The position numbers were made by a program, and so were the translations under genes. The notes under the pieces are model-generated. The model ran no database searches. It had not been told where the DNA came from and saw only the letters and a program-made list of their open reading frames with translations. Shown piece after piece: positions 5,535 through 63,209 of a DNA stretch of 64,000 nt. Positions within the stretch are counted from its first letter, which is position 1; each line of letters opens with the position of its first letter. The DNA is from a virus (taxonomy: Duplodnaviria; Caudoviricetes): positions 1 to 64,000 of IMG/VR virus record IMGVR_UViG_3300028832_000127. One strand, written 5' to 3'.

Positions 5535-7658
5535 TTAGAATATTCCTAATGCCCCGCCATCGTACCTGACGGGTTTTGTGATTTGACCCAAAATTTGCCC
5601 CAAGACATAATAGCGTGACGCATCTAAACAATTGTGAACGAGTACGCCGTTTGCAAAAAATTCGTGCCGTTCCTCTACCTCAATATCGTACACCTGACGC
5701 ATCGCGTAGGCTCTGTATTCTATCGCGGTGAGCGTATAACTGAATATGCCGCGTGATTTGCCGCTCTCGAACACGAAAACAACGTCCCCGACCTTCAATT
5801 TCTCCAATTCCACCCACCCGCGCAAAGTGCGCACCTTGTGGTCGGGCGTGGCTGTCAACTCCACATAAGAGCCGCCAAAGATGAGGCGCACCGTGACAGC
5901 CTTTTTAGTTCCTTGGTTGAAAAACCGCGTTATCCTGCGGTAGCCGCCGACGGTCAGCACCTTGTCGGAAAGTTTGAGACGGTCAAAACGCACCGCCCCC
6001 CTCTTGGTGATTACCAGCGTCTCGCCAACAAAGCAGTGGTTATCCCTGTCCACGGGCTTGTTGATGTAGTTTCCGTTCTTATCCCTGTCCCACACGTAAT
6101 TTCTTAGTTCGTTTTGTAAGTTCAGGCTGTTCCGCGTTACAAACATCTCCATATCCTTCATTTTCTCGATGCCCGCAAGGATAGAGCCGCCGCCTTTGAT
6201 AACGGGGTAAATCAATATTCCCGCGTTGAAAATCTCCTGTATCAGTCGGGGGTCTGCGCTGTCTGCAATTACGGTCGTGCCTTTATAGGGTTTGAGAGCC
6301 GCCACGATGTCAGAAACGAGCATTTTTGTCTGATAGCAAATCTCCTCAATATACAGCCTGTTATCGACGATTCCGCACCGTACAATGGCGGTGAAATCTG
6401 CGGCATACCCAAAGTCCACACCGAGTGCAATCTTCTTTGCGTAATCGGGGAACTCATCAACCACACCCCAGTTCTTGAACACTGCGCCCTCGGCAACGTC
6501 CGCCCACTGACCCATAACCGTGTGCGCGTACTTTTCGGGGTTCTCCGCCTTGATGCGCTCCGTTTCCTTTATGAAGTCCTCGCTCAAATTCTTGATGTTG
6601 TCGAGGTAGGTGGTGTGTATGTGCAGCACGTTAGGATGTGTGGAGATTTGGACGGGAACGCCGTCAAAGTCCACCACCTTGTGCGTGTCCTTGATGAAAC
6701 GCCGATAGACGAAGTGGTTGCTGTCCGTCGGGTTCATAATGATAATGATGCGGTTCTTGATGCCCTTTTGACGAATTGACAGCATAATCTTGTCAAATTC
6801 CGCTTCACTCGTCCACTCCTCCGCCTCATCAACCACAAAGGTCGTAATGCCGTGTATTGACTTCAATTTAGCGGTTTGGTTGCCGCTTGACGTGTGGATG
6901 CCTCGGAACATTATCTTGGCACCCGTCAGGATGTTGCGCACGTCCCCCCTCGACGATGAAAAATACTTAGACACGCCGTCAAGTTCTATCTTCTCCATCA
7001 TTTCGGGAATGACGGACATATTGGCGGATACCATTGTGTATCGGGTGTAAAGGATTGTGTGGGTTATCTTCTCGTCGGGGTTGTCGGGTTTGGGGAACGC
7101 CTCAAACGTCAGACGCTCGATGAACGCGCCCGTGGCGAAGGACTTGCCGCTGTTGTGCGTCACCGTGCCGTCGGCGTGGAGGTAGCGTTGGTTGCCGTCG
7201 AGGGATATTCCGCACCATACGTCCTTGCCGTGGGGGGTGATTGTAAGGTCTGAATAGACGCGGCGTATGCCGTCGGCTGTCCTTTCCACCCTGAAACCCT
7301 TGAAATTTCGCCAAGCATAGCGGTTTTTTATGAAGTCGATGATGTTAACGTCGTCAACGTATTTCCCGTCCGAAACGGTCAGAATGTGGCTCGCGTTGAC
7401 AAGGTAGTCCTCGCCGTCCGACTGCTGGACGCGGTACATCATACCCCTGCCCTGCATCGTGCCGATTACGGTGCGCGGCGTGAAGTCGTCGCCCATCACC
7501 TGTTCGCCCACGTGGATGTCCTTAATCATCTTTACGGAATTGTCCGCCATAATGATTTTCTGTGTCGGTGTCTCGCAGCCACGCCCGCCCGTGACAAGTA
7601 TTATCATCTTGTCCTTTTCCAAGTACATCGGATTATATACGTCCGCAAGTTGTATCAT
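5535..7658 (-). CDS. terL: Terminase large subunit (PBSX-like) interrupted by two inteins
   Basis: After removing inteins: Walker A GGRG|SGKS, Walker B FVVDEAEE, nuclease GVDFG and DNH|CLDASRY; predicted spliced length 430 aa. Confidence 0.95.
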   Translation of the reverse strand: MIQLADVYNPMYLEKDKMIILVTGGRGCETPTQKIIMADNSVKMIKDIHVGEQVMGDDFTPRTVIGTMQGRGMMYRVQQSDGEDYLVNASHILTVSDGKYVDDVNIIDFIKNRYAWRNFKGFRVERTADGIRRVYSDLTITPHGKDVWCGISLDGNQRYLHADGTVTHNSGKSFATGAFIERLTFEAFPKPDNPDEKITHTILYTRYTMVSANMSVIPEMMEKIELDGVSKYFSSSRGDVRNILTGAKIMFRGIHTSSGNQTAKLKSIHGITTFVVDEAEEWTSEAEFDKIMLSIRQKGIKNRIIIIMNPTDSNHFVYRRFIKDTHKVVDFDGVPVQISTHPNVLHIHTTYLDNIKNLSEDFIKETERIKAENPEKYAHTVMGQWADVAEGAVFKNWGVVDEFPDYAKKIALGVDFGYAADFTAIVRCGIVDNRLYIEEICYQTKMLVSDIVAALKPYKGTTVIADSADPRLIQEIFNAGILIYPVIKGGGSILAGIEKMKDMEMFVTRNSLNLQNELRNYVWDRDKNGNYINKPVDRDNHCFVGETLVITKRGAVRFDRLKLSDKVLTVGGYRRITRFFNQGTKKAVTVRLIFGGSYVELTATPDHKVRTLRGWVELEKLKVGDVVFVFESGKSRGIFSYTLTAIEYRAYAMRQVYDIEVEERHEFFANGVLVHNCLDASRYYVLGQILGQITKPVRYDGGALGIF
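5631..6035 (-). mobile_element. Mini-intein 2 (135 aa) in the TerL nuclease domain
   Basis: Starts CFVGET, block B TPDHKV, block F VYDIEV, ends VHN, +1 residue Cys. Confidence 0.95.
7152..7577 (-). mobile_element. Mini-intein 1 (142 aa) in the TerL Walker A loop
   Basis: Starts C (CETPTQKIIMAD), block B NASHIL, ends THN, +1 residue Ser; no endonuclease motif seen. Confidence 0.92.
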
Positions 7659-7661: not shown

Positions 7662-8396
7662 CTATCCGTTTATGTTAGTTGCCGCCGCCTCTTGTATGTC
7701 GTCGGGGGCGGCTGTGTTGTTGGCTACGATTGCAAGTTTCTGCGTCGCCGTGAGTTCCTTGTCCGTGACCATTGCAGTCACCCAAGCCTCGATGTCGATG
7801 CCTTTCTTCGCTTCCTGTATCTCCTTAGTGTCAGACACGCCCGCCTCCGTCTTGACCCACTCGGGGTCGTGGTGGTGCAGCCAAGTAGCCAACGCCTGCA
7901 TGTTCGGCGGCATTTCCGCCTCCGTCTCCTGAATTATGCACTTGTCCGTCACAACCTTGCCGATGCCGCCGCAGTAAGGGCAGTGGGGGTCTTGACCGCC
8001 ACACTCGCACCTGTCCTCTATGTACCGCCGCGTCACGTTAGTTAATTTTTTTGCGCCAAGTGCCATTTTCAGATACGTGGAACGCACAAGGCTGTTGGTC
8101 TTGCGCCTTGCCACCTCCAAGGTGGTGCGTATCCGTGCGCTGACCCGCTCGCGCTTTTCCTCGTCCCATTTGTCGTACTTGCCGTTCTTCATTCGGCTGA
8201 ACACCTCGGGCGCGAGTTGGAGTTCGTCGGCTATCTCGTTGTCGTAATAGCCTGAACGCGCCAACGCTGCCAAGGCGATGTAGAAGTCGTCCGATTCGTA
8301 GTCGTGTTTCGGGTATCGACCCACGCCGTCCTTTACGCCCCTTTCCTTTACCTTGGCTTTGTCTTTAACTTTGACTTTGCCCTTGCTGTTTGCCAT
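7662..8396 (-). CDS. terS: Probable terminase small subunit
   Basis: Directly upstream of terL; HTH (DNEIADELQLAPEVFSR) and PPNMQALATWL segment typical of phage TerS; CxC...CPYC insert. Confidence 0.75.
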   Translation of the reverse strand: MANSKGKVKVKDKAKVKERGVKDGVGRYPKHDYESDDFYIALAALARSGYYDNEIADELQLAPEVFSRMKNGKYDKWDEEKRERVSARIRTTLEVARRKTNSLVRSTYLKMALGAKKLTNVTRRYIEDRCECGGQDPHCPYCGGIGKVVTDKCIIQETEAEMPPNMQALATWLHHHDPEWVKTEAGVSDTKEIQEAKKGIDIEAWVTAMVTDKELTATQKLAIVANNTAAPDDIQEAAATNING

Positions 8397-8421
8397 TGCC
8401 TTGTGTTTTTAGGTTGTTGTG

Positions 8422-9177
8422 CTATCGGCTCTCCAATAACTCTATGACCTTGCCGCCGTCGCATACGTCCACCTCGCCCTCCTCGCCTATCAGGGAGCAG
8501 AAGTATTCCTTTGCCTCCAAGTCCTGAAAACTGAGGATTACCTGCGCACGGGCGGTCGCGTCGTACCTTTCGGAGTTCTCGCGGTTGAGAGCCTTGCCCT
8601 CCAAGACCTTTGCCTTCTTCTCATCATCGGTGAGGTTCTCCGTGCCTTTGACGGGAACGGTGGCGGACGGCAGGAAGTTGAAGAACTCCTCGACTTCTTT
8701 GGATGCGCCGCCCTCTTTTGTCGGCACGTTGAACACGTCGTCGTCGGTGATGTTGAACATTTCCAACGCCTTAATTTGTGCGTCGGTCAGTCCGATGTCC
8801 TTGGTGTCGATGTCGCCGATGTACTTTGCTATCAAGTCGAGGTCGGCGGCTGTGTTCCCGACCGCCATATACGTCATTTGCTCCTTCTCCGCCTTTTCGG
8901 AGAGTTCGCAGACCTCAACCTTTACATCGTAGTCCGTCTCGGGCGTTCCGTCATACCTGTTCAGTTGGTCGAGGGCGAGAAGTCGGCGGTGTCCGTCCAA
9001 GAGGTTGTTTGTGGTGGAGTTTACCACGATGCCGCCAAGTATGCCCACTTTCCTGATGTTTCGCGCCTGAGTGTTGATTGCGTCCTCCAAGTGCCGCTTG
9101 GGGTTCAGGGCGTTGAGGTTGATTTGCGAGCGTTTGACGGTCTTAGTCACGCTCTGTTTTATGTTGGTTGCTGCCAT
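8422..9177 (-). CDS. ParB/Srx-like domain protein
   Basis: NPKRH...GIVVN...LLDGHRRL; start moved to MAATNIKQ. Confidence 0.85.
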   Translation of the reverse strand: MAATNIKQSVTKTVKRSQINLNALNPKRHLEDAINTQARNIRKVGILGGIVVNSTTNNLLDGHRRLLALDQLNRYDGTPETDYDVKVEVCELSEKAEKEQMTYMAVGNTAADLDLIAKYIGDIDTKDIGLTDAQIKALEMFNITDDDVFNVPTKEGGASKEVEEFFNFLPSATVPVKGTENLTDDEKKAKVLEGKALNRENSERYDATARAQVILSFQDLEAKEYFCSLIGEEGEVDVCDGGKVIELLESR

Positions 9178-9248
9178 TGGTCGGAAAATGTTGAAACTAT
9201 TTTGATTGTGCAAATATAAATCAAACACAGACGGCTGCAAAGTCGGTG

Positions 9249-10220
9249 CTATGCCTCCGCGTCGTCAGTGTCAGGCATAACATATTGCGCCATCGTCGCG
9301 TCGAAATCGTGCAGAAGCCGCCGTGCGTCGGGATATTGGGCGAAAACACGCTCCAAATCAGAGGGAAAGTTGTTGCGCAGGTAGTTAAGAAACACGGGGC
9401 TATCCACGCTCTCGCCGCTTGATGTCGCCTTTTTGAACATTCCCTCGCCATAGTCAACGTTGGTGATGAGGCTCTTGTCCTTGATGTACTTCTCTATGTC
9501 CTTGTGCTTGTAGAGGTGCAGGGGGTATGCCTTTTTAGTCTTCCAGTTGATGCCGTCGCTGTCCTTGAAACCCACCTTGTACAGCACCTGTGGGGCAAGC
9601 GGCGCGTCGTCTTTGACGTTGGCGAAGATGTCGGGCAGTTCTGCGGCGGACAGCGCATCTTTGAGGTCGCGGAACGTCGCGTCTTTCTGTGCCTTTGTCA
9701 CCGTCACCTTGTCCGCGTCTTGGTCTGCGGGGCGGTAGGTTATGACAATTTCGTTCTGCTTGTCCACGGTGATTGTAACGCCGTTTTTTTGGTAGCACGG
9801 CACGGTGTAGGTTCTAAGGAAGACGCGCCGTTGCAGGGAGTCCGCCTCCTTCATTCCGAAGAACGCCCATTGTACGCCTGTCTTCTGCCGCGCTATCTCA
9901 GTGATGTCGGCAAGGTTGAGGAGTTTTTGGTCGGGGTTGGTCTCGCAGCCAAGATAGCCGTACTTGACGTAAGAGGAAACGTTGAAGTGGGGGCATTGGA
10001 TAAAGTGCGCATTCGGGTACATAGCCTCCGCCCACCTGATGTAGCGGTTCACGCATTGCAAGTCGGGGACAACGTACATAAACACGCACACAATTTCCTT
10101 GAAGTAAGGGGCGCAAAGGTCGAGCATTACGATGCTGTCCTTGCCCGTCGCGGAATGGAATAATAAAATTTTGTCCGTCTGTTCCGCAATTCGTTTGATG
10201 CAGTCGGTAGCCTTGCTCAT
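9249..10220 (-). CDS. PAPS-reductase-like PP-loop protein
   Basis: PP-loop LFHSATGKDS, FFGMKEADSLQRR, C-terminal YPL motif; apparent ~80 aa insertion. Confidence 0.85.
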   Translation of the reverse strand: MSKATDCIKRIAEQTDKILLFHSATGKDSIVMLDLCAPYFKEIVCVFMYVVPDLQCVNRYIRWAEAMYPNAHFIQCPHFNVSSYVKYGYLGCETNPDQKLLNLADITEIARQKTGVQWAFFGMKEADSLQRRVFLRTYTVPCYQKNGVTITVDKQNEIVITYRPADQDADKVTVTKAQKDATFRDLKDALSAAELPDIFANVKDDAPLAPQVLYKVGFKDSDGINWKTKKAYPLHLYKHKDIEKYIKDKSLITNVDYGEGMFKKATSSGESVDSPVFLNYLRNNFPSDLERVFAQYPDARRLLHDFDATMAQYVMPDTDDAEA

Positions 10221-49438: not shown

Positions 49439-49440
49439 CG

Positions 49441-51360: not shown

Positions 51361-51375
51361 CTCCCATAAAAGCGA

Positions 51376-51411: not shown

Positions 51412-51676
51412 CTTTCCTTATCTGTGTAGATACGGGGTTTTCCCAGGCTTTTTAGAATGTGGATGATGTTAATCGGCTGCAAATATACAAAACCCTTCCG
51501 CCGTTGCAAAGTCGCAACAAAACGCAGGGCGCGATATGTGCCAAGACAGACCGCGCCCCGAAACTCTCACCGTTTGCGGCGGAGCATCTTTAACAAGGCA
51601 ACTTGTACCATTTCGCGGTACAGCCTCATCGTCCCGAATGTAAAGTGCAATCAACTTCCTGACGTCAGCAAAATGA

Positions 51677-52144: not shown

Positions 52145-52356
52145 AACTCTGTTTTTCAGGTCTTTGCGCCGTTCTTATCTTTTTATTTGATTTTCTGCCA
52201 CAAAAAGGAAAATAAAAACCGCCAAAAATCTGATTTGCAGCGTTTTGTTTAACTTGCCTACAACTTGCCGAAACGTCCAATATTGCGTCCAATTCCGCCG
52301 CCTTTTTGGACGTATTCTTGGTCATTTCAAACGGTTACAAAATGTCACCGTTTGAA

Positions 52357-52755: not shown

Positions 52756-52850
52756 TTGATTGCCATATTTAAAAAAAGGCGGTCGGCACACGTACCAACC
52801 GCCCCAAACATTTAACAATAATTATAATTGAAAAACAAAAAAGGACTTAA

Positions 52851-53084
52851 TTACAAGTATCGTCCCGAGCCGCGACCGCTGCGGAACTCATCGTCTTTCT
52901 CCGCCTCGCAGTCCTCGAAACCGTGCTTGTAGCCCTCGCGGTAGCCGTCCTCGTAGGACATCATTCCGCTGTTGTTGCGGTAGTAGCCGCCACCGCTGCG
53001 CCTGCGCCTCATCTCTTCGCGCATTTGGGAACGCATCTGCGACTGACCGCCCTGACCGTCCCTGTCAACAAAAATGTAGCTCAT
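52851..53084 (-). CDS. Low-complexity Gly/Arg/Tyr-rich small protein (CCC operon)
   Basis: MRRRRSGGGYY...YEDGYREGYKHGFED. Confidence 0.7.
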   Translation of the reverse strand: MSYIFVDRDGQGGQSQMRSQMREEMRRRRSGGGYYRNNSGMMSYEDGYREGYKHGFEDCEAEKDDEFRSGRGSGRYL

Positions 53085-53090
53085 AGTTCC

Positions 53091-53636
53091 TTATGGTTTT
53101 TTGGGGTTCTCACCCGTCAGTTTTTTGAGCATCGCAAGCATCTGCGCGTTGTCGGTTTCAAGTTTTGCGAACCTCTTGGACATATCAGAATAGCCTTTTT
53201 CAAGGTCGGAAATGGTCTGCGCCTGTTTCTTCTCCTCCGCGTATTTGGGGTTCAAGACTTCAAGCATCTTGTCGCCCTCGGCTATCATCGTCTTGTGGTA
53301 TTCCACATCGCCCAACGCCTTTTTGGACTGAGAGATGAGGCTGTCAATCACCGAAATCATAGCGTCCCGACTGCCCGAAAACACCTTGTCGCCTGACTGA
53401 GCGACCTCGACGTTGAAAGGAATGTCCGTAAATGTCTCGTCCCTGCCGTCTATTGTCGCCGTGACGTTTATTACTTGCTGTATGTTCGTGCCGTTGAAAG
53501 CCGTGGGGACGGATTGCGCCTGATACTTCGGCTGCGGCTGCGTCTTTGACTTCACCGTGCCGATTTGCAGGGCGGGTGTCCCCGACTTCCTAAGCACATA
53601 GAACGGAGAACCGTTCACTAACGAGTTGAAATCCAT
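53091..53636 (-). CDS. Beta-domain plus coiled-coil protein (CCC operon)
   Basis: 181 aa; beta-rich N-terminal half and heptad-rich C-terminal half. Confidence 0.75.
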   Translation of the reverse strand: MDFNSLVNGSPFYVLRKSGTPALQIGTVKSKTQPQPKYQAQSVPTAFNGTNIQQVINVTATIDGRDETFTDIPFNVEVAQSGDKVFSGSRDAMISVIDSLISQSKKALGDVEYHKTMIAEGDKMLEVLNPKYAEEKKQAQTISDLEKGYSDMSKRFAKLETDNAQMLAMLKKLTGENPKKP

Positions 53637-53661
53637 TGTTATTTACTTTGTTTAGTTGAGT

Positions 53662-54024
53662 TTAAGCACCGCCGCTTGCCGCCGCAGGTGCCGTCTGTAT
53701 CAGTTGCAGTATTCCGTTGTACTTGTCGTTGAAAACGAGCAAAACGCCCGTGCCTGACAAGTCCGCGACCGTTACAGCCGCGCCGCCAAAATACGTGAGC
53801 GGTCTCGTCGTGCCGTTGAGCGTCAGGCTGACGGGCAGCGTCCCCGTCGTTCCCGTAGGGATTGCGCTTGTCACCCTGACCACGAACAAACCGACGGGCG
53901 ACAAGGGTCTGAAACCAAGGGCGAGGTTAACCGCCGTGTCAGACACAAGCACGTTTGTCGTCGGGATGTACGGAACGCCCTCCGTGTTTGCCGTTATGAT
54001 GTTGTTACACGCCATATTTCTCAC
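53662..54024 (-). CDS. Small beta-rich protein (CCC operon)
   Basis: Alternating hydrophobic pattern, Thr/Gly/Val rich. Confidence 0.75.
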   Translation of the reverse strand: MRNMACNNIITANTEGVPYIPTTNVLVSDTAVNLALGFRPLSPVGLFVVRVTSAIPTGTTGTLPVSLTLNGTTRPLTYFGGAAVTVADLSGTGVLLVFNDKYNGILQLIQTAPAAASGGA

Positions 54025-54033
54025 GTTTTTAGG

Positions 54034-54990
54034 TTAGAAGTTGTAATAGTTGCCGTTTCCGTAGCCGTAGCCGAAACCGCCTGTGTAGGGGGTGTTGTTG
54101 ACAGCCACGAGGTTGGGGTATTGGACGGGGACGGTGTTGGGCATACGGTTCTCAATTTCCGTCACCTTGTTGGCGAGTGCCGAAATCTGCGCGTTGAGCG
54201 GAGCGACCGCCTGACCTACCACGCCCGCGAAGTAGTTGTTTTGGTTAGCCTGCGAAATCTCGCCCGAAAGTTTGGTGTTTTCCGCCCTTGCAGCGTCGAG
54301 TTTGTCTTGCAGCGTCTGCGTCTGCATCTCGGACAACTTGTTGAGGATAGCCTGAGTGTTGGCGTTTCCGCTGTTTTGGAGGGTGTTGGTCTGTTGACAG
54401 ATTGCGAGGGTGTCTGCTGCGCCAAATGCCGCCACCTGCTGCCCCACGCCGTTGATTGCAGACTGCAAGGCGTTGGTCTGATTGCAGATTGCCAACTTGT
54501 TTTCGCAACAGCAATTTGCGAACTGCGATGCGAGCGAGGAATTGCCCGCTTGGATTGCGTTCTGAATTTGCAGTGTTGACATTCCCTGCTGCGCTGCGAG
54601 GGTCGAAAGGCTGTTCTGTACGTTCTGCACGGCAGCGTTGACGGTTGCGTAGTCCTGACCGAGCATCGTCGCAAGGTTCTGAATTGCAGACCTTGACGCT
54701 TCACCGTTGCCGTTTATGGCGTTCATAAGAAGTTCACGTCCGCTGTCGTTGTTGAGTTGGTTTGCGAGGTATGCGCCGTTCATACCGTTGTTTCCGCCGA
54801 AGCCGAAGCCGCCGTTGCCCCAGCCGAAGATGCTCGCGATGATGGCGAACCCGAACAGGTCGAGGAGGTTGGTGTTTCCGTTGCCACCGAACAGACCGTT
54901 GCCGTTGCCTCCGATAGGAATGGAGAAGGGCAGTCCGCCGACATTTCCGCTGTTGCCTCCTCCGTCGGGGAGTTGATAGATTTCTGCCAT
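54034..54990 (-). CDS. Gly/Asn/Gln-rich helical protein with CCC motif
   Basis: Gly/Asn-rich N-terminus with a hydrophobic helix, FANCCCENKLAIC, long heptads, Tyr/Gly-rich tail; -7 box TAACTTTG upstream. Confidence 0.8.
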   Translation of the reverse strand: MAEIYQLPDGGGNSGNVGGLPFSIPIGGNGNGLFGGNGNTNLLDLFGFAIIASIFGWGNGGFGFGGNNGMNGAYLANQLNNDSGRELLMNAINGNGEASRSAIQNLATMLGQDYATVNAAVQNVQNSLSTLAAQQGMSTLQIQNAIQAGNSSLASQFANCCCENKLAICNQTNALQSAINGVGQQVAAFGAADTLAICQQTNTLQNSGNANTQAILNKLSEMQTQTLQDKLDAARAENTKLSGEISQANQNNYFAGVVGQAVAPLNAQISALANKVTEIENRMPNTVPVQYPNLVAVNNTPYTGGFGYGYGNGNYYNF

Positions 54991-55181
54991 TTGATTTTAG
55001 GTTTAAGTTGGTTTTATTAGGTTGATAATGTTGCTTGCAAGCGGTGGCAAAAGAACAGCATAAAAGAGGGGCGCAAAAGTCGGAGCGCGAGGGGCGGCGT
55101 TTAAGTTTAAGGCAAACACAAAGTTACAGCGAAAAAAAATTTATTGTTGGTTTTTCTTTTGTTTTTGGCGATGTTTTAAGG

Positions 55182-55442
55182 TTGTTGATTATTGCATCAA
55201 TACAGACAAAAAACACCCCTAAAATCGAAAATCTTAAAACATCATTATATATATATGTAAGTCAGAAACAAAGAAAATACAAAATATTTTCAAAATTTTT
55301 ATCTTTATAAAACACTGATTTTAAACAAGTTGAAAAATATTTTGTAAAAACCTACAAAAATATTTTTGATTTTATGAAACATTTTTAATAATTTTGCGTT
55401 TAAATAAGTACAAACAACAAACAAAGTAACTAACTTTTAAAA
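55182..55442 (+). repeat. Repeated promoter cassette, copy D
   Basis: Near-identical to copies B and C; 3' 127 bp identical to copy A. Confidence 0.95.
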
Positions 55443-55453
55443 CACTTACTAAA

Positions 55454-55621
55454 ATGAAAACAGACAACACAATGCCGAGATATACGGCGCAAGAGATTGC
55501 AGACGATTTTTTCACTGATGGCGTATTGTGGGACGTGTGGGGTCATTCGTCCTGCATTGAGGGCGACAAACTCAAAGTAACAACCCCCGACGGTGTGTCT
55601 TATTACGACATCAACAAGTAA
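55454..55621 (+). CDS. Small hypothetical protein (55 aa, not in track)
   Basis: MKTDNTMPRY...YDINK* directly after copy D. Confidence 0.65.
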   Translation: MKTDNTMPRYTAQEIADDFFTDGVLWDVWGHSSCIEGDKLKVTTPDGVSYYDINK

Positions 55622-55637
55622 AACAAAGGAGGCAATT

Positions 55638-55859
55638 ATGTACGAAGAACCACAAAACTATCACGAAGTACCACCAAACTATTTGGTAGAGGTTGAGCCG
55701 TTTGGCACTCTACTTTGCAAAGAGGCTGCGCCTAACGTACACAGATGTACGGGCTGCGTCGGACTTACAAACGCTCCTATTTGCCACATACTGAATTGCC
55801 GCGCAACGGCACGAAAAGACGGCAAAAATGTAATTTTAGTGCCGTACAAAGAGGATTAA
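55638..55859 (+). CDS. Small Cys-rich protein
   Basis: CTGCVG...CHILNCRATARKDGKNVIL; 21 bp tandem duplication at the 5' end. Confidence 0.7.
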   Translation: MYEEPQNYHEVPPNYLVEVEPFGTLLCKEAAPNVHRCTGCVGLTNAPICHILNCRATARKDGKNVILVPYKED

Positions 55860-55896
55860 CAACGGGGCGGCAACGCCCCACAAAAACAAATAGAAA

Positions 55897-56499
55897 ATGA
55901 AAGCGAAACATTTAGTACGTGGTAAAGACACCGTGACAGGCGCGTGGCGGGTCGGCTATCTTGTAATGATAGACGGCAAACCGCACATCATAGAAAACCG
56001 CGACATCAGCGAGGTGGGACACCACTTCCAACAAGATGGCGACAGACCAACGTGGGTTGCCCCCAAGACGGTGGGCAGCATTGCACCGCGCCAAGACACC
56101 GACGGCAAAAACGTTTTCGAGGGGGACGTGGTGGAGTACACCGACGAAATTTATTCATTCCGCATCCGTGCCTTCGTCGAGTACGGCGAGTTCAGGGCGG
56201 ACAATAGCGACGGCGAGTACGCGGGCGCGAGGGTGTACGGCTGGCACGTTTCGCTGATTTCGGCGACACCGCCCGAATGGGACAAGGAGGCAGAATTACC
56301 GCAATGGTTGAGGGTGCAGAGTTTGCTCGAAATTCCCGACTTCAAGGTCGTAAGCAACGAGTGGGATATGTCCGTTAATGCCCCCGTGGGCGGTATGAGC
56401 CAAAACACGGCAGAAGAACTGATTGAAAGGCTCGGCAAGGTACAGCGAACAATGCAGAAAACAGCAGAGAACGCGCTCCGCTATATCAACAACTATTAA
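55897..56499 (+). CDS. YopX-like protein
   Basis: RGKD..TGAWRVGYL...PKTVG...KNVFEGDVV. Confidence 0.7.
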   Translation: MKAKHLVRGKDTVTGAWRVGYLVMIDGKPHIIENRDISEVGHHFQQDGDRPTWVAPKTVGSIAPRQDTDGKNVFEGDVVEYTDEIYSFRIRAFVEYGEFRADNSDGEYAGARVYGWHVSLISATPPEWDKEAELPQWLRVQSLLEIPDFKVVSNEWDMSVNAPVGGMSQNTAEELIERLGKVQRTMQKTAENALRYINNY

Positions 56500-56595
56500 A
56501 AAGGCTGCAATTAACATTTTTTTTACAAAAATAATTTGATTTTTGTTTTGCGAAATCAAATTATTTGCTTAAATTTGCAGCATAAAACAAGACAC

Positions 56596-56737
56596 GATGG
56601 CTTAGTTTAAGCGTCCCAAGACGCTATATCCGACGAGTAGCCTACGGAGCGGTGCGGAGACACCGAGCAAGAGGCGAAAGGGAGACGAAAAAACGCCGCC
56701 GAAAGGGTGGACGATGCTGTGCGAGCCAGCAGCCATC
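56596..56737 (+). ncRNA. Candidate multibranched structured RNA or leader
   Basis: Closing stem GATGGCT/AGCCATC around hairpins AGCGTC/GACGCT, CGGTG/CACCG, GGCG/CGCC and TGCTG/CAGCA; starts just after a TAAATTTG box. Confidence 0.55.
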
Positions 56738-56759
56738 ACTAACAAAAAAAACAGACGCT

Positions 56760-56951
56760 ATGAGAGTTCCCAAGCATAAGACCTGTGCCGCCTGTCTGTG
56801 GTACGCAGCCGCCAAGCAGACCGCAAACGGCGTTATTGACGGCGAGTTTTTCTGTCACCACGCCGCGAACAGCCACAAAAGCAAGGGGTGGGGCGGTCGG
56901 GTGCATAAGAACGACCGAGCGTGTGAGAATATGGAAAAAACTAAAAACTAA
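56760..56951 (+). CDS. Small Cys-rich protein
   Basis: CAACLWY...FFCHH...ACEN. Confidence 0.55.
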   Translation: MRVPKHKTCAACLWYAAAKQTANGVIDGEFFCHHAANSHKSKGWGGRVHKNDRACENMEKTKN

Positions 56952-56957
56952 AATGCT

Positions 56958-57275
56958 ATGAAAAAGATGTTTTATCAGGTAACGGTGGCAGCCCCTACGC
57001 TGCCCGACGGTTACGACGAGGAGACAAAGACGGGACAGATGCTTATTGCCAACTATGACAATTCCGCGTCCGTCTATGCAAACCTGAAAGCGTTTTTTAA
57101 TGTGGCGATACCTGAGCCGTCCAAAGACACCGCTTTTAGCATCGTAAGGCAAATAGTAAACATTGCGGACAAGGCGTTCAAACCCGATTTTGTCGGCTGC
57201 GACGTGGACATTCCGCTTTGTGGCAGCCAATACAAGCGAATACACTTCAAATGCACACCCTTACAAGACTACTAA
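56958..57275 (+). CDS. Hypothetical protein
   Basis: 105 aa ORF. Confidence 0.65.
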   Translation: MKKMFYQVTVAAPTLPDGYDEETKTGQMLIANYDNSASVYANLKAFFNVAIPEPSKDTAFSIVRQIVNIADKAFKPDFVGCDVDIPLCGSQYKRIHFKCTPLQDY

Positions 57276-57288
57276 ACGCTATGAAAAA

Positions 57289-57678
57289 ATGAAACCCAAA
57301 CTATACAGAAAATTCCGAGCCGTTGAGCATAAAACCTACAAATTCGTGTACGGTGCTTATGTCGAGTACATCGACCAAGACAGACCCGACGAAATCATAG
57401 AGGACAACGGAACGGTTCACAAAGTGGCAAGTTGGACGGTCGGCGAGTTTACGGGTTTTGTTGACGGTTCAAGTCCGCGCCGTGAAATATACGACGGCGA
57501 CATCTTGCAAGAGCCTGACCACTCCGACACCTACGTTGTCTTTTGGGACAAGGGCGAGGGGCAGTGGGCGGTCAAATTCCGCGATACCACAATGCCGCTG
57601 GCAAGGTTGCGCCGCGCTTATGGCTTCGTCGCCAAGGTAATCAGTACGACAACAGCAGACATAACCACAGAAAAATGA
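57289..57678 (+). CDS. YopX-like protein
   Basis: RKFRA...FVYG...TVGEFTG...EIYDGDIL...VVFWD. Confidence 0.8.
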   Translation: MKPKLYRKFRAVEHKTYKFVYGAYVEYIDQDRPDEIIEDNGTVHKVASWTVGEFTGFVDGSSPRREIYDGDILQEPDHSDTYVVFWDKGEGQWAVKFRDTTMPLARLRRAYGFVAKVISTTTADITTEK

Positions 57679-57848
57679 CACAAGACCACCCCGACATAAT
57701 CGCCGCGCTTAACGAGACGGTGGCAAGGCTGACAGCGGAAAACGCCGCCAAGGACGCGCAAATACAAGCCTTGCAGGACAAACTCAACCGCGCAAACGAC
57801 GCTCTCACGCAGATGGTGGAGAGCAGGAAAGAATATTACGACGTATAA
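57675..57848 (+). CDS. Small coiled-coil protein
   Basis: MTQDHPD...LTAENAAKDAQIQALQ. Confidence 0.55.
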   Translation: MTQDHPDIIAALNETVARLTAENAAKDAQIQALQDKLNRANDALTQMVESRKEYYDV

Positions 57849-57859
57849 ACATTAAGACT

Positions 57860-58150
57860 ATGGCAACAAAAAGACCCCTATTCTCCAACGGCACGGAGTT
57901 TATGTTTTGGAGTTCCCGAAACTGCGAACACTGCCACAAAGCCGTGCAATACAACGAGGGCAAAAACTATATGCCCAAGTATCGGTGCGCGATACAGCGC
58001 GACATCGAATTTGCGGCGATAGACGACGGCTGCGGCAACGATAGGGCGTACAATGCCGCAAGGTCGCCACGCTGTCCCTACTTTGTAGAAAAGGGCAGCG
58101 TAAAGCGGAAACGAGCAAAAAAGAACGACACACAGCCGACGCTGTGGTAA
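57860..58150 (+). CDS. Cys-rich hypothetical phage protein
   Basis: FSNGTEFMFW...NCEHC...RCAIQ. Confidence 0.65.
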   Translation: MATKRPLFSNGTEFMFWSSRNCEHCHKAVQYNEGKNYMPKYRCAIQRDIEFAAIDDGCGNDRAYNAARSPRCPYFVEKGSVKRKRAKKNDTQPTLW

Positions 58151-58364: not shown

Positions 58365-61300
58365 ATGGCAGCGGAAAATTTAGGCGAATTAGAGGCGGGC
58401 GTGAAACTCACCCCCGACACCTCGGATTTTGATAAAGCCTTCGGCGATACCATATCAAAGGCAAAGGCGCAACTCGACAGCCTCAGCGGTCAGACCCTCA
58501 CGCAATTAACTAACAATTTCAAGGGGTTTGCGAACTCCGTGACGGGCGGTCTCGACGCTATCAACGCGAGCATCGCCAAGGTGCAGAGCATCGCATCCCT
58601 CGGAATATTAGGCGGCGGCTTGGCGGGTCTTGTGCATCAAGTCTTCCAAACTCGCTCCTACTTTCAGGATGCAGCCTCATCAATGAAAACGTTTCTCGGC
58701 GATGCGGAGAAAGGCGCGAAGTTCACCAAGGAATTGCAGGACTATGCGTTCTACAATATGTACGAATTTCAAGACCTCGTGGGCGCGTCGCAGCAACTCA
58801 TAGCCTACGGCACAAAGGACAGCAAGGAGATAATCGGCGTTATCGACCAACTCTCCAACATCGCCACAGGCACGGGCGCGTCGCTCAACGGAATGATAGA
58901 CATATACAACAAGATAAAGGCGCAGGGCAAGGCTAACGGAATAGTGTTAGACCAATTGGCGAGCCGTGGTCTTTTGGTGAAACAGACACTTAAAGACATG
59001 GGCGAGACGGTCAACGGCAACACCGTAACGTTTGAGCAATTCCAAAAGGTTTTGAAGCACGTCACGGACGAGGGCGGCATGTTCCACAACCTTATGAAGG
59101 AGCAGTTGAACAACCTGTCGGCGAGCGCGGCGCAGTTGTCGGACGTGATGACCAATATGTGGAACGAGATAGGCGAACAGGCAGAGCCGTATATGAAGGA
59201 GGCGATAGATTTGGCGGCTATGGTTGTCGAGAATTACAAGGAGATTGCGGCGGTGCTGTTCGACATAGCCAAAGCGTATGCAATCTACAAGGTGGCGGCA
59301 TCCGCTATTGAGTGGAACAAGAACACGATAGCGGCGGAGCAGTTCGAGATGGAGAAGGCAGCGTTAGAGGGTGCGACGGAGGCGTTAGAGGGTGCGACGG
59401 AAGCAACTGAGGACAACGCGGAGGCAGACATCAAGGCGCGTGTCGCAAAGGGACAACTGACAGAGGCGCAGGCAAAGGAACTTATAGCGATACAGCAAGG
59501 ATTGGAGAAACGCAAGCAGGAGTTGATGTTAGTGCAGCGTCAGGCGACGGCGGAGGCGACGGCGGCGGAAAAGGAGATTGCAGCCCTGAAAGCCAAGATA
59601 GCGATGCAGGAGCGGTCGCTAAAAATCACGGGTGACTTGTCGAGGGCGTCAGAAATCAACGCTATGAAGACGCAGGTGGAGACGTTGGAGAAAGGGCGGC
59701 TTGCGGCGGCTGAACGTGCGGAGAACGCGCAAAAACAGATTTCCGCAATCAATACGGCGAGGGATGCGGCGGCGCAGGTAGCGGATGCCAACGCCACAAG
59801 CCTATTGACAAGGGCAAAGTTGGCGGCTGGGGCAGCAATCAAAGGCATAGGCAGCAGCATAATGTCGATGATAAACCCCACGGCACTTGCGACGGCGGCA
59901 GTCGGTTTCCTTGTTACCAAACTGATTGAGATGGCGATGGCGGACACCACGTTGGAAAAGGAAATGAAGAAACTCCGCGACATTGAGAGCGAGTATTTCA
60001 ACAACGTAAGGAAAGAGCAGGCTACGCTTGATGAGGCTTACGGCAAGACGCTTAACCTGAAAGAGGGAACAGAGGAATACAACAAGGCTAAGACTGATTT
60101 GATTAATCAGTATAGCGAGTATCTGTCGGGTCTGTCAGCCGAGGAGACGAAGTTAATGTCCATAAAAGACCTTTACGAAAAAATAACGGTTGCGATTATG
60201 GACAAGTACAAGGCGCAGGCGTTGGAAAAGGCAAGGGACACATTCGGACAGACGGTCGGCGACGCCAAGACAGAGGCGATAAAAACGATGTTTACCGAGC
60301 TTGACAAGGGAACGGATGACGTTCAAAAGGCGGCTATCAAGCAACAAGCGGACAAGATGTTCGACGACTACATTGCAGCCACAAAGAAAATAAAGGAAAT
60401 ACAAAGGGAGAACGCTATGATACAATTTAGCGACCCCGACGCATATAGTGAAAACTTACAAAAAATGAGGGTGATTGTTGACGAGTACAAAAATACTTAT
60501 CAGAATTACTTTGACTATATTAAAAAATTCAAATTAGGCAATAAATTTGCCTTTGACTACGAAATAAGCAAAGCCTTTTTTGGAATATTTGAATCTGACA
60601 AAAATGCCGCTACGGACTTTATCGACACGGAGACTGCGGCAATGAAAGCCTTGTCAGATGCCGAGGCTATGTTTGCGAACAACTGGAACAAGGCGACAGG
60701 GGGCGGCACTACCCCCGAAGTCCCCCCCGCAGCCCCAAGGATAAAAAAAGCAAAGGAAGAGGACAAAAAATTCATTGAGGCTTATGCAAAACTCGTTGAG
60801 GAGCGAAACAAAAAAATAGCCGACATTGAAAAGGAATACGGCACTTCCGATGAAGTCAAACAGTACAAAATCCAACAAATTGAAGTCCAATATGATTGGA
60901 AAATCAAGGATTTGGCTGCGGGCAACGGTCTGACTGAAAAACAAGAGCAGGCACTTGTAGAGAAATATGAGGCTGCCGCAAATTCTGAACTTGACATTGC
61001 AAAGGAACAGTACCTCAAAATCAAAGATGAGATTGCCAAATATCAGAAACTACAATCAAACATTCAACTCACCGACAAAAACGCAAATCAGGCAGAACTG
61101 GACAAGAGGATGGCGACATTCAACGCCTACACTAAGAAAATAGCCAGCCTAACGGCGGAAATGGAGGGCTATGAAGCTGTCATCAACAAGTCTTTTGATA
61201 AGACTGATTACGCAAAAAAAGCGTCAGCGTACACAAAGTTTGCCGAGGATTATTCCGCCAGCCTCATCGCTGTTAAGGCGAAAGAGGTGGAAATCAAAAA

Positions 61301-63209
61301 GAAAATAGCAGACCTTGACAATCAAGCAGCCAAAACATCCGACACGGATGCATTGGCTGACATCAACAGGCAGAAGGCAAACGCGCAGACAGAACTGGAC
61401 AACTTCAAGATAGAGCAGGAAACCAAACGGCAGATTTTGGTGGAGGGGTTTGACGGCACGGCGACCGACGTTACCGACATCATAAACAAAATGATGGAGC
61501 AGACGTCAAATCTGACATTTGACCAGTTGCAAAAGGAAATTGTCAAGGTAACGGGGAAGCTCCGACAACTGCAAGCACGGCAGCAAATGGGTGAGGATGT
61601 GTCGCAGGAGATAGCCGAAACGTCGGCACAATTAAAGATTTTGGAGGGTGCGAGCGAGGCAGCCAAGAAAGCCATGCAGATTGAAAAAGGCGACGACCCG
61701 ATAGACTATTGGAAAGACAGCAAAAAAGCAGTCGGACAACTTGCCAACGCCTTTAAGGATTTGGGCAGTGCGATAGGCGGTTCTACCGAGGAAGCACTCA
61801 ACACGGCAAGCATGGTGCTTACAACCACCGTTTCCCTTGTTGACAACATCGTAACTTTCACCACGACGAGCATATCCGCCATCAAGACGGCGGAAACGGC
61901 AGGTGTGGCGGCGGTAAAGGCGGTGGAGGCGGCATCGGTCATTTTGGCGATAATTTCCGCCGTCATCCAGTTGGGACAGGCGATAGCCAGCCTTTTCAAT
62001 AAAAAAGACCCTATCGACGAACTTAAAGACAGCCTCCACGACTTCAACCTCGAATTAGAGGAAACAAAACGCCTTGCCGCAAACGAAGCAAGTTTCAAGC
62101 CCTTTGAAACAATATTCGGAGACGATGCATGGGGAGCAATGACCAACAACATACGCATAGGAGCGGAGGCGTTGGAAACATACGAAAAGACGCAGCAAGA
62201 CATAATTAAGAACGCCCAGACTATGACGGGGCAGATGAAACAGGGCGTAGGTGGAGCAATCGGCTCGGCTATTCTCACGGGCGGTTGGTGGTCGGGAGGA
62301 AATCACAGTGCGGTTACCGCAGCAGGACAATACGACAATGTGGACGATACCGTGGCGAACATGAAAGTCAAGGTGCAGCACAAGACGTGGATTAGGAACG
62401 AGAAATCATCAACTTTAAAAGACTTTGTTCCGTCCCTTTTCGACGACCAAGGCAAACTTGACAAGGACGCGCTGCATAAGTTTGTCGAAAGCAACAACGA
62501 TGCTTTTCAAAAGTTGAGCCAAGACAACCAAGACTACCTCAAAAAAATGGACGAAAGTTGGCAGGAGTACCAAGAGGCTGTCGCGGCGGTTAAGGACACC
62601 TTCTCCGAGTTCTTCGGGGATTTGGGAAGTCAGATACAGGATGTGTGGACAAATGCGTTCCGCAGCGGTGAGGACGGACTGGCGGACTTTGAAAAGTCGT
62701 GGGACAGCGCAATCGAGAATATGATACAGTCGATGGCATATTCCAAGACGCTGGGCAAGGTTATGAGCGACATGGAGAACGACTTAGACGAGGCTGGCTT
62801 TTTTGACGACCCAAACGCAAACATGGATAAAGCCGTGGGCATTATGGAAGAATACGAGCAGAAATCGCTTGCCACAAAAGAGGCTTACGACCAAATCCTT
62901 GAAACTTGGCGCAAAAAAGGCTACTTCAAAGAGGAAGAAGCACAACGTCAAGCCGTGTCGGGCGGCATAGCCAACGTAACGCAAGACACCGCCGAGGAAA
63001 TGAATGGTCGGCTCACGCAGATACAAAGCCACACGTTCTCAATCAACGAGGGCATGAAACAAATGGTAACAATGCAGACCACGCAACTGGCGATACTGCA
63101 AGGAATACACACCGACACGGCACGACTGGCGACGATACAGGGCGAAATCACCGCTGTAAGGGCGGCGGTCGCAGACATCCAAATCAAGGGCATCAAGTTG
63201 AAGTCGTAA
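58365..63209 (+). CDS. Tail tape measure protein
   Basis: 1614 aa, Ala/Glu/Lys helical, N-terminal tape-measure domain (LQDYA...FQDL..ASQQLIAYG), C-terminal TQDTAEEMNGRLTQIQ. Confidence 0.93.
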   Translation: MAAENLGELEAGVKLTPDTSDFDKAFGDTISKAKAQLDSLSGQTLTQLTNNFKGFANSVTGGLDAINASIAKVQSIASLGILGGGLAGLVHQVFQTRSYFQDAASSMKTFLGDAEKGAKFTKELQDYAFYNMYEFQDLVGASQQLIAYGTKDSKEIIGVIDQLSNIATGTGASLNGMIDIYNKIKAQGKANGIVLDQLASRGLLVKQTLKDMGETVNGNTVTFEQFQKVLKHVTDEGGMFHNLMKEQLNNLSASAAQLSDVMTNMWNEIGEQAEPYMKEAIDLAAMVVENYKEIAAVLFDIAKAYAIYKVAASAIEWNKNTIAAEQFEMEKAALEGATEALEGATEATEDNAEADIKARVAKGQLTEAQAKELIAIQQGLEKRKQELMLVQRQATAEATAAEKEIAALKAKIAMQERSLKITGDLSRASEINAMKTQVETLEKGRLAAAERAENAQKQISAINTARDAAAQVADANATSLLTRAKLAAGAAIKGIGSSIMSMINPTALATAAVGFLVTKLIEMAMADTTLEKEMKKLRDIESEYFNNVRKEQATLDEAYGKTLNLKEGTEEYNKAKTDLINQYSEYLSGLSAEETKLMSIKDLYEKITVAIMDKYKAQALEKARDTFGQTVGDAKTEAIKTMFTELDKGTDDVQKAAIKQQADKMFDDYIAATKKIKEIQRENAMIQFSDPDAYSENLQKMRVIVDEYKNTYQNYFDYIKKFKLGNKFAFDYEISKAFFGIFESDKNAATDFIDTETAAMKALSDAEAMFANNWNKATGGGTTPEVPPAAPRIKKAKEEDKKFIEAYAKLVEERNKKIADIEKEYGTSDEVKQYKIQQIEVQYDWKIKDLAAGNGLTEKQEQALVEKYEAAANSELDIAKEQYLKIKDEIAKYQKLQSNIQLTDKNANQAELDKRMATFNAYTKKIASLTAEMEGYEAVINKSFDKTDYAKKASAYTKFAEDYSASLIAVKAKEVEIKKKIADLDNQAAKTSDTDALADINRQKANAQTELDNFKIEQETKRQILVEGFDGTATDVTDIINKMMEQTSNLTFDQLQKEIVKVTGKLRQLQARQQMGEDVSQEIAETSAQLKILEGASEAAKKAMQIEKGDDPIDYWKDSKKAVGQLANAFKDLGSAIGGSTEEALNTASMVLTTTVSLVDNIVTFTTTSISAIKTAETAGVAAVKAVEAASVILAIISAVIQLGQAIASLFNKKDPIDELKDSLHDFNLELEETKRLAANEASFKPFETIFGDDAWGAMTNNIRIGAEALETYEKTQQDIIKNAQTMTGQMKQGVGGAIGSAILTGGWWSGGNHSAVTAAGQYDNVDDTVANMKVKVQHKTWIRNEKSSTLKDFVPSLFDDQGKLDKDALHKFVESNNDAFQKLSQDNQDYLKKMDESWQEYQEAVAAVKDTFSEFFGDLGSQIQDVWTNAFRSGEDGLADFEKSWDSAIENMIQSMAYSKTLGKVMSDMENDLDEAGFFDDPNANMDKAVGIMEEYEQKSLATKEAYDQILETWRKKGYFKEEEAQRQAVSGGIANVTQDTAEEMNGRLTQIQSHTFSINEGMKQMVTMQTTQLAILQGIHTDTARLATIQGEITAVRAAVADIQIKGIKLKS

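Follow-up and report, generated by a model that had tools for sequence, protein, structure and literature searches.

Few features in phage genomics are as strongly conserved as the order of the late genes in temperate siphophages, and annotation tools, prophage finders and module-based classification depend on it. The nearest isolated phage by TerL to the genome described here, Bacteroides phage BS-TP2 (PQ571275; temperate, host B. salyersiae), has TerL, portal, head, tail, tape measure (TMP) and distal tail genes co-linear on one strand and a holin that adjoins the endolysin, in a genome of 57.6 kb. The canonical order is also found in the Riemerella phage RAP44 group and in uncultured IMG/VR relatives such as UViG_2548877171_000004 (L006), in which TerL abuts the portal gene and TMP lies on the portal strand; these phages share portal, TerL and TMP families with our genome at 45–60% identity. 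We retrieved 80 IMG/VR loci through the portal for a family comparison. A TerL homologue is present in 62 of them, in most cases immediately ahead of the portal, and all 21 loci that have a TMP homologue carry it on the portal strand. Judged from these loci, the arrangement of the wider family is canonical.

Our genome resembles BS-TP2 in its TerL exteins (69% identical), in the order of the PAPS-reductase, ParB, TerS and TerL genes, in a TMP of about the same size (~1610 aa in BS-TP2), in a Phage_holin_4_1-type holin and an integrase, and in an SPP1-type portal and HK97/lambda-E-type capsid. However, identity beyond TerL is only 21–35%, the TerL of BS-TP2 has no inteins, and the late region is laid out differently. 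The sequence makes it probable that our phage is a complete and functional temperate siphophage whose fragmented late region is inherited and descends from the canonical order. In other respects it is an ordinary representative of a known kind.

Genome and late-gene order

The record is a stand-alone virus contig of 76,469 bp with neither host flanks nor host genes at its ends; the window, the stretch of DNA analyzed, is 64 kb of that contig, and features beyond it are given by genome position. The last bases and the first 151 bases of the contig form a single repeat copy from which ~136 nt are absent, and in a 77.2-kb relative both contig ends adjoin across a divergent promoter region. The genome would be ~76.6 kb and circular or circularly permuted, and the contig is apparently complete. 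A search for the portal and capsid outside the window, which the earlier note had suggested, found both intact in the last 12 kb of the contig: genome 68077–75123 (−) holds the portal, a scaffold-like gene, the capsid, four small connector genes, the tube gene and a 174-aa gene. Profile searches matched SPP1_portal (E 2.5e−24) and Phage_cap_E (E 1.5e−9), and TerL, portal and an HK97-fold major capsid protein are all present. The tail tube gene (244 aa, BACON-tagged) is assigned by position only, and no sheath family was matched among the ORFs scanned, which included part of the small ORFs. A tyrosine integrase (33835..35019, −; Phage_integrase, Arm-DNA-bind_5, SAM_5) marks a temperate lifestyle. 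Open frames also encode regulators, an ERF recombinase, an O-like replication initiator, SSB and a helicase, TerS and TerL, a full head, neck and tail set, a holin and an amidase. Gene transfer agents and domesticated particle loci lack their own replication, integration and regulatory genes and are host-embedded, which does not describe this genome. A tRNA scan found no tRNA genes in the window. The host is probably a member of the Bacteroidales from a gut or rumen habitat.

On the circular map the late genes follow one another as TerS-TerL, portal-head-tube, TMP, tail tip, hub and fibers, all on the minus strand except for the inverted TMP unit, and the canonical relative order of packaging, head, tail tube, TMP, tip and fiber genes is retained. 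Three nonstructural segments of 7.0, 4.9 and 11.5 kb break this order. The earlier note described the morphogenesis and lysis genes as scattered islands. All the genes that it named are present where it placed them, as PHROG and Pfam matches, and they do form separate blocks; the blocks are not randomly scattered, however, because their circular order is canonical.

The packaging block contains a TerL of 707 aa (5535..7658, −; phrog_2, E 3e−44; Pfam Terminase_3 and Terminase_3C) that carries two mini-inteins, at residues 28–169 in the Walker A loop and at residues 542–676, with Hom_end_hint and Intein_splicing matches. The junctions read C28...HN169|S170 and C542...HN676|C677, and the intein-free TerL of L100 aligns to residues 1–28, 170–541 and 675–707, collinear at both sites. 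The inserts are inteins by their Hint domains, their junction residues and the contiguity of the intein-free protein. TerS (7662–8396, −; phrog_309, E 2e−13), a ParB-like gene (8422–9240, −) and a PAPS-reductase-like gene (9249–10220, −), the latter two with PHROG matches, complete this side, and the gene order over 7662..10220 is identical in BS-TP2 and L006.

TerS and TerL are not adjacent to the portal (genome 73699–75123, −), which lies 7.0 kb downstream of TerL on the circle behind mostly opposite-strand genes. The lack of an adjoining portal was thus a correct observation insofar as there is a real gap and in part an effect of the window edge. This first interruption consists of two opposite-strand cassettes (142..5335, +), with a ResIII/DEAD helicase (1283–2479, +) alongside an HTH protein and small ORFs, and reaches ~7.0 kb once genome 75205–76196 is added. 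Homologous opposite-strand cassettes come after TerL in L093 and L099. The second interruption, between the tube block and TMP (genome 63213–68076), contains a lipoprotein gene convergent on TMP (63213..63683, −; lipobox-like N terminus), an HTH regulator, DUF3846 and small ORFs; a homologue of the lipoprotein gene (59% identity) has the same position in L090.

The third interruption, of 11.5 kb, separates tip and TMP and has genes on both strands (46838..58150). It contains a thyX-like remnant with a low coding score (46838–47575, −), plus-strand accessory genes (48700–51840, +), a 5′ fragment of a PAPS-reductase gene (49340–49639, −), a six-gene block (51677–54990, −), and a class I promoter cassette followed by a YopX cassette (55150–58150, +). 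In L086, L087, L088 and L091 it is missing between tip and TMP, and pieces of it are found elsewhere in L005, L090 and L100.

The TMP (1614 aa; 58365..63209, +; phrog_9959, E 1.5e−88) is encoded on the strand opposite to all other virion genes, and YopX-type genes lie ahead of it (55897–56499 and 57163–57678, +). Its homologues carry PF20155 TMP_3. On the other side of the third interruption is a Tal-like tail tip of 1151 aa (43381..46836, −; phrog_19846, E 7e−114) with a subthreshold Prophage_tail match and homologues annotated as tail proteins in Riemerella phages; homologues with 49% identity divergently abut TMP in L086, L088 and L091. The distal tail block (36170..42556, −; matches to phrog_5302, PTR repeats and phrog_6305) comprises a tail protein (36170–37435, −), a 234-aa ORF, a PTR-repeat fiber of 1110 aa (38155–41487, −) and the phrog_6305 tail protein or “hub” (41651–42556, −). 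The order of hub and fiber N terminus is kept in L086, L087 and L088. Between hub and tip are three small ORFs of 66, 94 and 63 aa (42553..43333, −), not four as had been counted before, and in relatives this slot holds three or four small genes.

Amidase unit, DUF6706 pair and holin

The genome has no single lysis cassette. The amidase (19249–19812, −; Amidase_2, E 8e−13), which has an N-terminal transmembrane (TM) segment and is the only recognizable muralytic enzyme in the genome, belongs to a unit at the distal end of the replication module (17979..20332, −). This unit is headed by a putative class II promoter (20265–20332, −) and also encodes a 2-TM protein (19788–20315, −), a TM protein of 313 aa, and a protein of 110 aa that combines a TM segment with a coiled coil. 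The cluster has the same makeup and place in L095, L096 and L097. The holin (47617–48069, −), the phage's only Phage_holin_4_1 holin, lies far away in the third interruption together with a conserved partner of 130 aa (48103–48495, −). The partner was considered as a hidden endolysin and has no PHROG, Pfam or Atlas match and no TM segment.

Next to the amidase unit and within the replication module, an opposite-strand pair (20542..21344, +) consists of a 148-aa ORF and a DUF6706 gene (21015–21344, +; PF20449), the “neck-like” gene. DUF6706 homologues are found immediately after the capsid gene in four distant relatives (L059, L060, L061 and L065), unlike the gene here, whose place is conserved in L095 to L097. 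The predicted model (pLDDT 81) has as its best PDB match the phiCD508 neck chain (Z 7.1, rmsd 2.9, 72 residues) and matches many adaptor chains at Z 4.2–5.5, with Foldseek E-values of 0.4 or worse. We regard DUF6706, with moderate confidence, as a candidate head-tail-adaptor-like (neck) protein. We hypothesize that the membrane-anchored amidase and the other membrane proteins act as a separate unit that ends the replication module, with DUF6706 beside it.

Promoter cassettes and dispersed repeats

The dispersed repeats comprise families D1 to D3 and I1 to I4, and an nhmmer scan identified 12 copies of a class I cassette, a putative promoter. These are at 1–151, 3566..3816, 14356–14665, 48619–48682, 49751–49806 and 55150–55461 on the plus strand, at 11670–11748 and 14097–14275 on the minus strand, and beyond the window at genome 66114–66182 (−), 66560–66629 (+) and 76209–76278 (−); the weakest copy (63784–63833) overlaps the start of an HTH regulator gene at 63781. 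A TAATTTTG box is inside every copy, and 11 of the 12 end 13–20 nt ahead of a start codon, including those of the head and TMP units. Class II copies, likewise putative promoters, head the amidase unit among others. No Rfam family was found in the genome, so the dispersed repeat is not a known RNA. The host-type motif TAnnTTTG is about 4-fold enriched in intergenic DNA, which makes up 14% of the genome and contains 52 of the 93 boxes. The claim that most islands have their own box was borne out: of the 15 starts that we checked, 7 have a box no more than 150 nt upstream, most island heads among them, namely the head unit, TMP unit, TMP, distal-tail unit, fiber, six-gene block and DUF6706 pair. 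The box of TMP itself, 48 nt upstream, is separate from that of the TMP unit.

We hypothesize that the layout can work because each block would have its own host-type promoter. The conserved class I cassette stands ahead of the head and TMP units and of several small-gene cassettes, and the sharing of this cassette suggests that the late genes may be coordinated via common promoters, not by one long late operon. The relatives with a TMP inversion have no class I repeats in the parts compared, and the shared-promoter idea may therefore be specific to a sublineage.

The proposal that repeats drove the scrambling did not gain support. Promoter cassettes occur at 11 of 53 synteny breakpoints and at 7 of 63 other boundaries (odds ratio, 2.1; p = 0.12), an enrichment that is not significant in a test made noisy by missing homologues, which also produce apparent breaks, and the relatives with an inverted TMP have no flanking inverted repeats. 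A role of the promoter repeats as rearrangement drivers is plausible. An invertible switch for TMP was considered and rejected, as no inverted repeats flank TMP in L086 or L087. In our genome, the TMP segment does lie between oppositely oriented class I copies at 55.4 kb (+) and 66.1 kb (−), but no invertase gene was found. A bolder reading is that in this clade TMP is a self-contained transcription unit that carries its own promoter and can relocate, that the late genes form a promoter-cassette regulon and that recombination at the cassettes, perhaps through the phages' own ERF/RecT-YqaJ systems, reshuffles modules; we consider this possible but doubtful.

Origin of the layout and comparison with known phages

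Close relatives (portal 82–96% identical) from independent assemblies have interruptions, an inverted TMP and the displaced amidase/DUF6706 cluster in common with our phage. In L086, L087, L088 and L091 a minus-strand tip is followed by a plus-strand TMP and then by tube and capsid on the minus strand, with the hub and small genes ahead of the tip. L093 has an intein-bearing TerL, then 12 opposite-strand genes and then the portal. L095 and L099 come from one 77.2-kb scaffold (portal 90%, TerL 91%). Their order equals that of our genome over 0–32 kb and 64–76 kb, and both the amidase unit and the DUF6706 pair are part of this match. TMP lies among VRR-NUC, regulator and ERF/RecT-YqaJ genes in L085, L089, L090 and L092, and in a 71.8-kb scaffold (L089 and L100) it is ~32 kb from the portal and on the other strand. 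The neighbors of TMP, TerS, the PAPS-reductase-like gene, the six-gene block and the integrase differ between close relatives, and distant members are canonical, which agrees with the earlier note's “heavily scrambled lineage.” That note also held that relatives with the same dispersed order would point instead to a stable family trait, and this was found in part: the macro-order is common to three near-full-length relatives from other assemblies. Hence, the dispersal is inherited and persists down to ~60–80% protein identity. Pattern scans found no close relatives of TMP and tip in IMG/VR and none of TMP in GTDB genomes, and a metagenome scan returned one 3.9-kb contig.

We propose that the late region derives from the canonical co-linear order still seen in distant relatives such as BS-TP2. 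In the clade it would have been split into four blocks (packaging; portal, head and tail tube; tape measure; tip, hub and fibers), with accessory or early cassettes of opposite or mixed strand inserted between them, and the tape-measure transcription unit would have been inverted while the circular block order was left canonical. This is a rearrangement-prone lineage, and its layout is an inherited oddity, neither a chimera nor a domesticated remnant. The sharing of the layout by related phages points to inheritance and not to decay.

A composite origin, in which at least one mobile element (a satellite or an integrative island) became integrated into a canonical phage, would best suit the 11.5-kb interruption: the segment at 46.8–58.4 kb is missing from the same slot in four relatives, its GC content ranges from 44 to 51%, and in L005 the six-gene block travels with an integrase, which is followed by the portal. 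We consider this unlikely, since the segment has no integrase, replication gene or flanking direct repeats in our genome, carries the only holin of its family and the genome-wide class I cassette, and has its parts dispersed in related phages, not as one unit. A wrong order caused by misjoining at the dispersed repeats (150–300 nt, 89–97% identical; at 0, 3.6, 14.4, 55.3, 66.3 and 76.3 kb) is a very unlikely explanation. Assemblers do stumble there, as both contig ends lie within a repeat copy and L098 also breaks at that repeat, and the joints unique to our contig, at ~46.8–58.4 kb and at the repeats, come from a single assembly. However, the main features lie away from repeats or recur in independent assemblies from other samples and pipelines: the inverted TMP beside the tip (L086, L087, L088 and L091), the order of TerL, cassette and portal (L093 and L099), the amidase/DUF6706 cluster (L095 to L097) and the end-to-start junction (L099). 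Moreover, TMP and the head genes share one repeat-bounded segment but are on opposite strands, so that no reordering of these segments would give a canonical operon.

Decay or domestication, in which the particle genes of a gene-transfer-agent-like prophage drift apart, was the other suggestion of the earlier note and is extremely improbable. The particle genes are dispersed, and some genes have decayed, as illustrated by the PAPS-reductase fragment, the low-coding thyX-like ORF and a template/variable-repeat pair without a reverse transcriptase. Yet the contig has no host genes at its ends, the replication, integration, packaging, virion and lysis sets are full and have open frames, and relatives of similar size (71.8, 76.4 and 77.2 kb) are present in many metagenomes. 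The dN/dS values of six dispersed genes also argue against decay and show purifying selection: in ascending order, 0.10 (tail tube), 0.11 (capsid), 0.13 (DUF6706), 0.16 (TMP, versus L085), 0.21 (amidase) and 0.26 (TerS).

A whole clade of abundant gut or rumen Bacteroidales phages thus departs from the expected late order, with an inverted or detached TMP, a terminase apart from the portal, and an adaptor-like gene and an amidase placed in the replication module. Because these expectations are broken under purifying selection, co-linearity is not required for function, and such contigs should not be labeled chimeric or defective. The clade offers a natural system for studying late-gene timing and tail assembly without operon linkage. 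If TMP is relocatable, tail assembly would proceed without linkage in cis of the tube, chaperone and TMP genes, contrary to the usual assumption.

In the literature that we searched, neither this clade nor any Bacteroidales phage with an inverted TMP is described, and the metagenomic scaffolds of the clade are undescribed. LIJU20-1 scaffold_18/16 (76.4 and 87.7 kb), scaffold_11 (77.2 kb) and ERZ1667815 scaffold_1060 (71.8 kb), with portals 82–90% identical to ours, belong to the same clade and share the interrupted late region and the inverted or detached TMP; an intein-bearing TerL occurs in some of them and the amidase/DUF6706 cluster in scaffold_11. They differ in the content and size of each interruption, and scaffold_1060 has its TMP in the early genes and its PAPS-reductase gene downstream of the portal. 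Among well-known phages, T4 has its holin gene t far from the lysozyme gene e and its late genes in many units, and virulent phages of this kind spread virion and lysis genes over several units that are coordinated by shared promoters and not by one operon. However, those phages are virulent myoviruses with large genomes and encode a late sigma factor of their own, whereas the phage described here is a 76-kb temperate siphophage that has putative host-type TAnnTTTG promoters and keeps the canonical block order.

Late and lysis genes on a circular map

PHROG and Pfam scans placed the late and lysis genes where the earlier note had put them. On the minus strand lie TerL (5535-7658), TerS (7662-8396; PHROG), an Amidase_2 enzyme (19249-19812), tail proteins with a PTR-repeat fibre (36170-42556), the 1151-aa Tal-like tip protein (43381-46836) and a Phage_holin_4_1 holin (47617-48069; Pfam). 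The plus strand carries the DUF6706 gene (21015-21344; Pfam) and, preceded by YopX-type genes, the 1614-aa tape measure protein (TMP; 58365-63209), whose homologues carry PF20155. Portal and capsid, sought in the remaining genome, are both intact beyond the window. They belong to an intact minus-strand block in the final 12.5 kb of the contig, which comprises an SPP1-type portal (genome 73699-75123), scaffold-like and decoration-like genes, a lambda-E/HK97-type capsid gene (70940-72022), four small connector genes, a BACON-tagged 244-aa protein in tail-tube position (68706-69440) and a 174-aa gene.

The contig, a single sequence catalogued as viral, is 76,469 bp long, the window being its first 64,000 bp; a codon-usage gene call gave about 115 genes, a tRNA scan found no tRNA genes in the window and an Rfam scan matched no family. 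The contig's final 30 bases correspond to 14349-14378 and its initial 151 bases to 14515-14665 of one repeat copy; hence the assembly broke within a dispersed repeat, and about 136 nt are absent. In a 77.2-kb relative the genes of the two ends adjoin across a divergent promoter region, flanked by the helicase cassette and by a 158-aa gene upstream of the portal, an arrangement that speaks for a circularly closed or permuted genome.

Read along the minus strand, the circle runs from PAPS-reductase-like, ParB-like, TerS and TerL genes through 7.0 kb of mainly opposite-strand cassettes, including the helicase, to portal, head, connectors, tube and the 174-aa gene. Then come 4.9 kb of mixed genes (DUF3846, HTH regulator, lipoprotein), the inverted TMP unit, 11.5 kb of mixed genes, the tip, three small genes, hub, fibre and tail proteins, the integrase, VRR-NUC nuclease and regulators, and a 16-kb replication/recombination/methylase module with the amidase unit at its end. 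The late-gene blocks thus remain in canonical sequence. The departures from the norm are three interruptions, the inversion of TMP and the siting of amidase and DUF6706 within the replication module, and to this extent the earlier picture of scattered islands stands.

The 16-kb module holds ERF, an O-like initiator, three or four methylases, YopX, SSB and a dUTPase-like gene. Four minus-strand genes for DNA methyltransferases of distinct classes (N6_Mtase, N6_N4_Mtase, D12 and C5; 17160-17954, 21453-22061, 24948-26174 and 26226-27347) suggest broad anti-restriction protection. The amidase carries a TM segment at its N-terminus, and the genes around it encode a 2-TM protein, a TM protein of 313 aa and a protein of 110 aa that combines a TM segment with a coiled coil. 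We infer that this unit, kept in three relatives, could be a self-sufficient lysis cassette of holin-like protein, signal-anchored endolysin and spanin-like protein. The Phage_holin_4_1 gene travels with a conserved 130-aa partner. The AlphaFold model of DUF6706 (mean pLDDT 81) best matched a neck chain of phage phiCD508 (Z 7.1, rmsd 2.9, 72 residues) and matched many portal-adaptor chains at Z 4.2-5.5, with Foldseek E-values of 0.4 or worse. In four distant relatives, homologues directly follow the capsid gene; together with the phiCD508 match, this makes "neck-like" a reasonable but unproven label for a candidate.

Several further features were observed. TerL contains two canonical mini-inteins (residues 28-169 and 542-676), the first interrupting the Walker A loop GGRG|SGKS; its homologues have none in locus L100 (430 aa), one in L095 (572 aa) and more in L093 (890 aa). 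Two 86-nt direct repeats, 92 % identical (35988-36073 and 36218-36303), lie one at the 3' end of and one just downstream of a tail protein gene (36170-37435), and no reverse transcriptase was found in any ORF scanned. Between holin and tip, a 245-aa minus-strand ORF of low coding score (46838-47575) matches ThyX (Thy1) weakly and solely over its C-terminus, and probably represents a gene remnant. A lipoprotein gene (63213-63683, minus; lipobox-like MKLKLFLAALAVSAMSGC), convergent on the TMP stop codon and conserved at the corresponding site of L090 (59 %), may encode a superinfection-exclusion factor.

Shared and shifting layouts among close relatives

Relatives with the dispersed order, from different samples and assemblers, were found. 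In four loci (L086, L087, L088 and L091) the tip gene and TMP stand back to back on opposite strands, TMP is followed by small genes and then by the tube/connector/capsid block on the tip strand, and the order is hub, small genes, tip. In L093, a 76.4-kb scaffold with an 82 % identical portal, an intein-bearing TerL is followed by twelve opposite-strand genes, one a 69 % homologue of 4790-5335 here, and then by the portal; four further opposite-strand genes separate the portal and scaffold genes. The 77.2-kb relative (L095 and L099; portal 90 %, TerL 91 %, amidase 86 %, DUF6706 92 %) agrees with our order across both 0-32 kb and 64-76 kb, with the amidase unit and the DUF6706 gene pair likewise inside the replication module.

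Other relatives bear out the earlier suggestion of a scrambled lineage, since TMP, PAPS-reductase or a six-gene block is placed differently in them. In L085 (TMP 85 %), L089, L090 and L092, TMP has a VRR-NUC gene on one side and regulator, ERF/RecT and YqaJ genes on the other. L085 and L090 have a TerS homologue (66-69 % identical) near TMP, and no TerL was found in the sequence of L090 (up to 10 kb to each side) or of L085, which ends 177 nt past the gene; in these two, linkage may be lost even between TerS and TerL. On the 71.8-kb scaffold of L089 and L100 (portal 85 %), TMP sits on the strand opposite the portal, about 32 kb away, and the PAPS-reductase gene is just downstream of the portal. 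The six-gene block (51677-54990, minus; phrog_16490, DUF7841 and others) relocates as one unit; in L005 (portal 68 %) it is followed by integrase and portal. A 5' PAPS-reductase-like fragment (49340-49639, minus) duplicates 10022-10220 (minus; 80 % nucleotide identity) and adjoins homologues of the genes flanking the full-length gene in L100, which makes it a probable scar of rearrangement.

We predict that the dispersed repeat serves as a promoter cassette. Searching with a profile built on the 75-nt class I core found 12 copies, 11 of which end 13-20 nt ahead of a start codon; the weakest overlaps the HTH regulator gene start at 63781. One copy (genome 76209-76278, minus) heads the unit leading into the portal and head genes and another (55364-55439, plus) the YopX/TMP unit, while a class II family heads minus-strand units, including that of the amidase. 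Intergenic DNA shows an about four-fold enrichment of TAnnTTTG boxes, one of which lies 48 nt upstream of TMP itself. Class I cassettes also occur in L085, L089, L090, L098 and L099 and were not found in the examined parts of L093, L086 and L087. Promoter cassettes stand at 11 of 53 synteny breakpoints and at 7 of the 63 remaining boundaries (odds ratio 2.1, p = 0.12). This enrichment is not significant; repeat-driven scrambling, as proposed earlier, is thus possible but unproven.

Inheritance, assembly or decay

We consider it probable that this is an intact temperate siphophage of a rearrangement-prone clade that inherited its fragmented late region. Misassembly at repeats could in principle mimic such a layout, and the contig does break inside one; with the same layout in independently assembled relatives, we regard this as improbable. 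That the interruptions derive from foreign integrated elements is slightly less improbable, and overlaps with the inherited-layout reading, so that our estimates are not mutually exclusive. The earlier alternative of a decaying or domesticated element is the least likely of all. In pairwise comparisons with one relative per gene, dN/dS was well under 1 for all six dispersed genes: 0.16 for TMP (against L085), 0.11 for capsid and 0.10 for tail tube (both L093), 0.21 for amidase and 0.13 for DUF6706 (both L095) and 0.26 for TerS (L090). The frame of every gene for the virion, packaging, lysis, replication and integration is open. At the sequence level, these data exclude wholesale decay, nor does the self-contained contig resemble a domesticated element.

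The ancestral order in distant relatives

Bacteroides phage BS-TP2, the nearest isolate (TerL exteins 69 % identical), is wholly co-linear, and its ParB-like and PAPS-reductase-like genes precede TerS/TerL as they do here. Among 80 IMG/VR loci retrieved via the portal (48-82 % identity), 62 have a TerL homologue, in most directly upstream of the portal, and TMP is on the portal strand in all 21 with a TMP homologue. Judged from these sequences, the canonical order is ancestral for the family.
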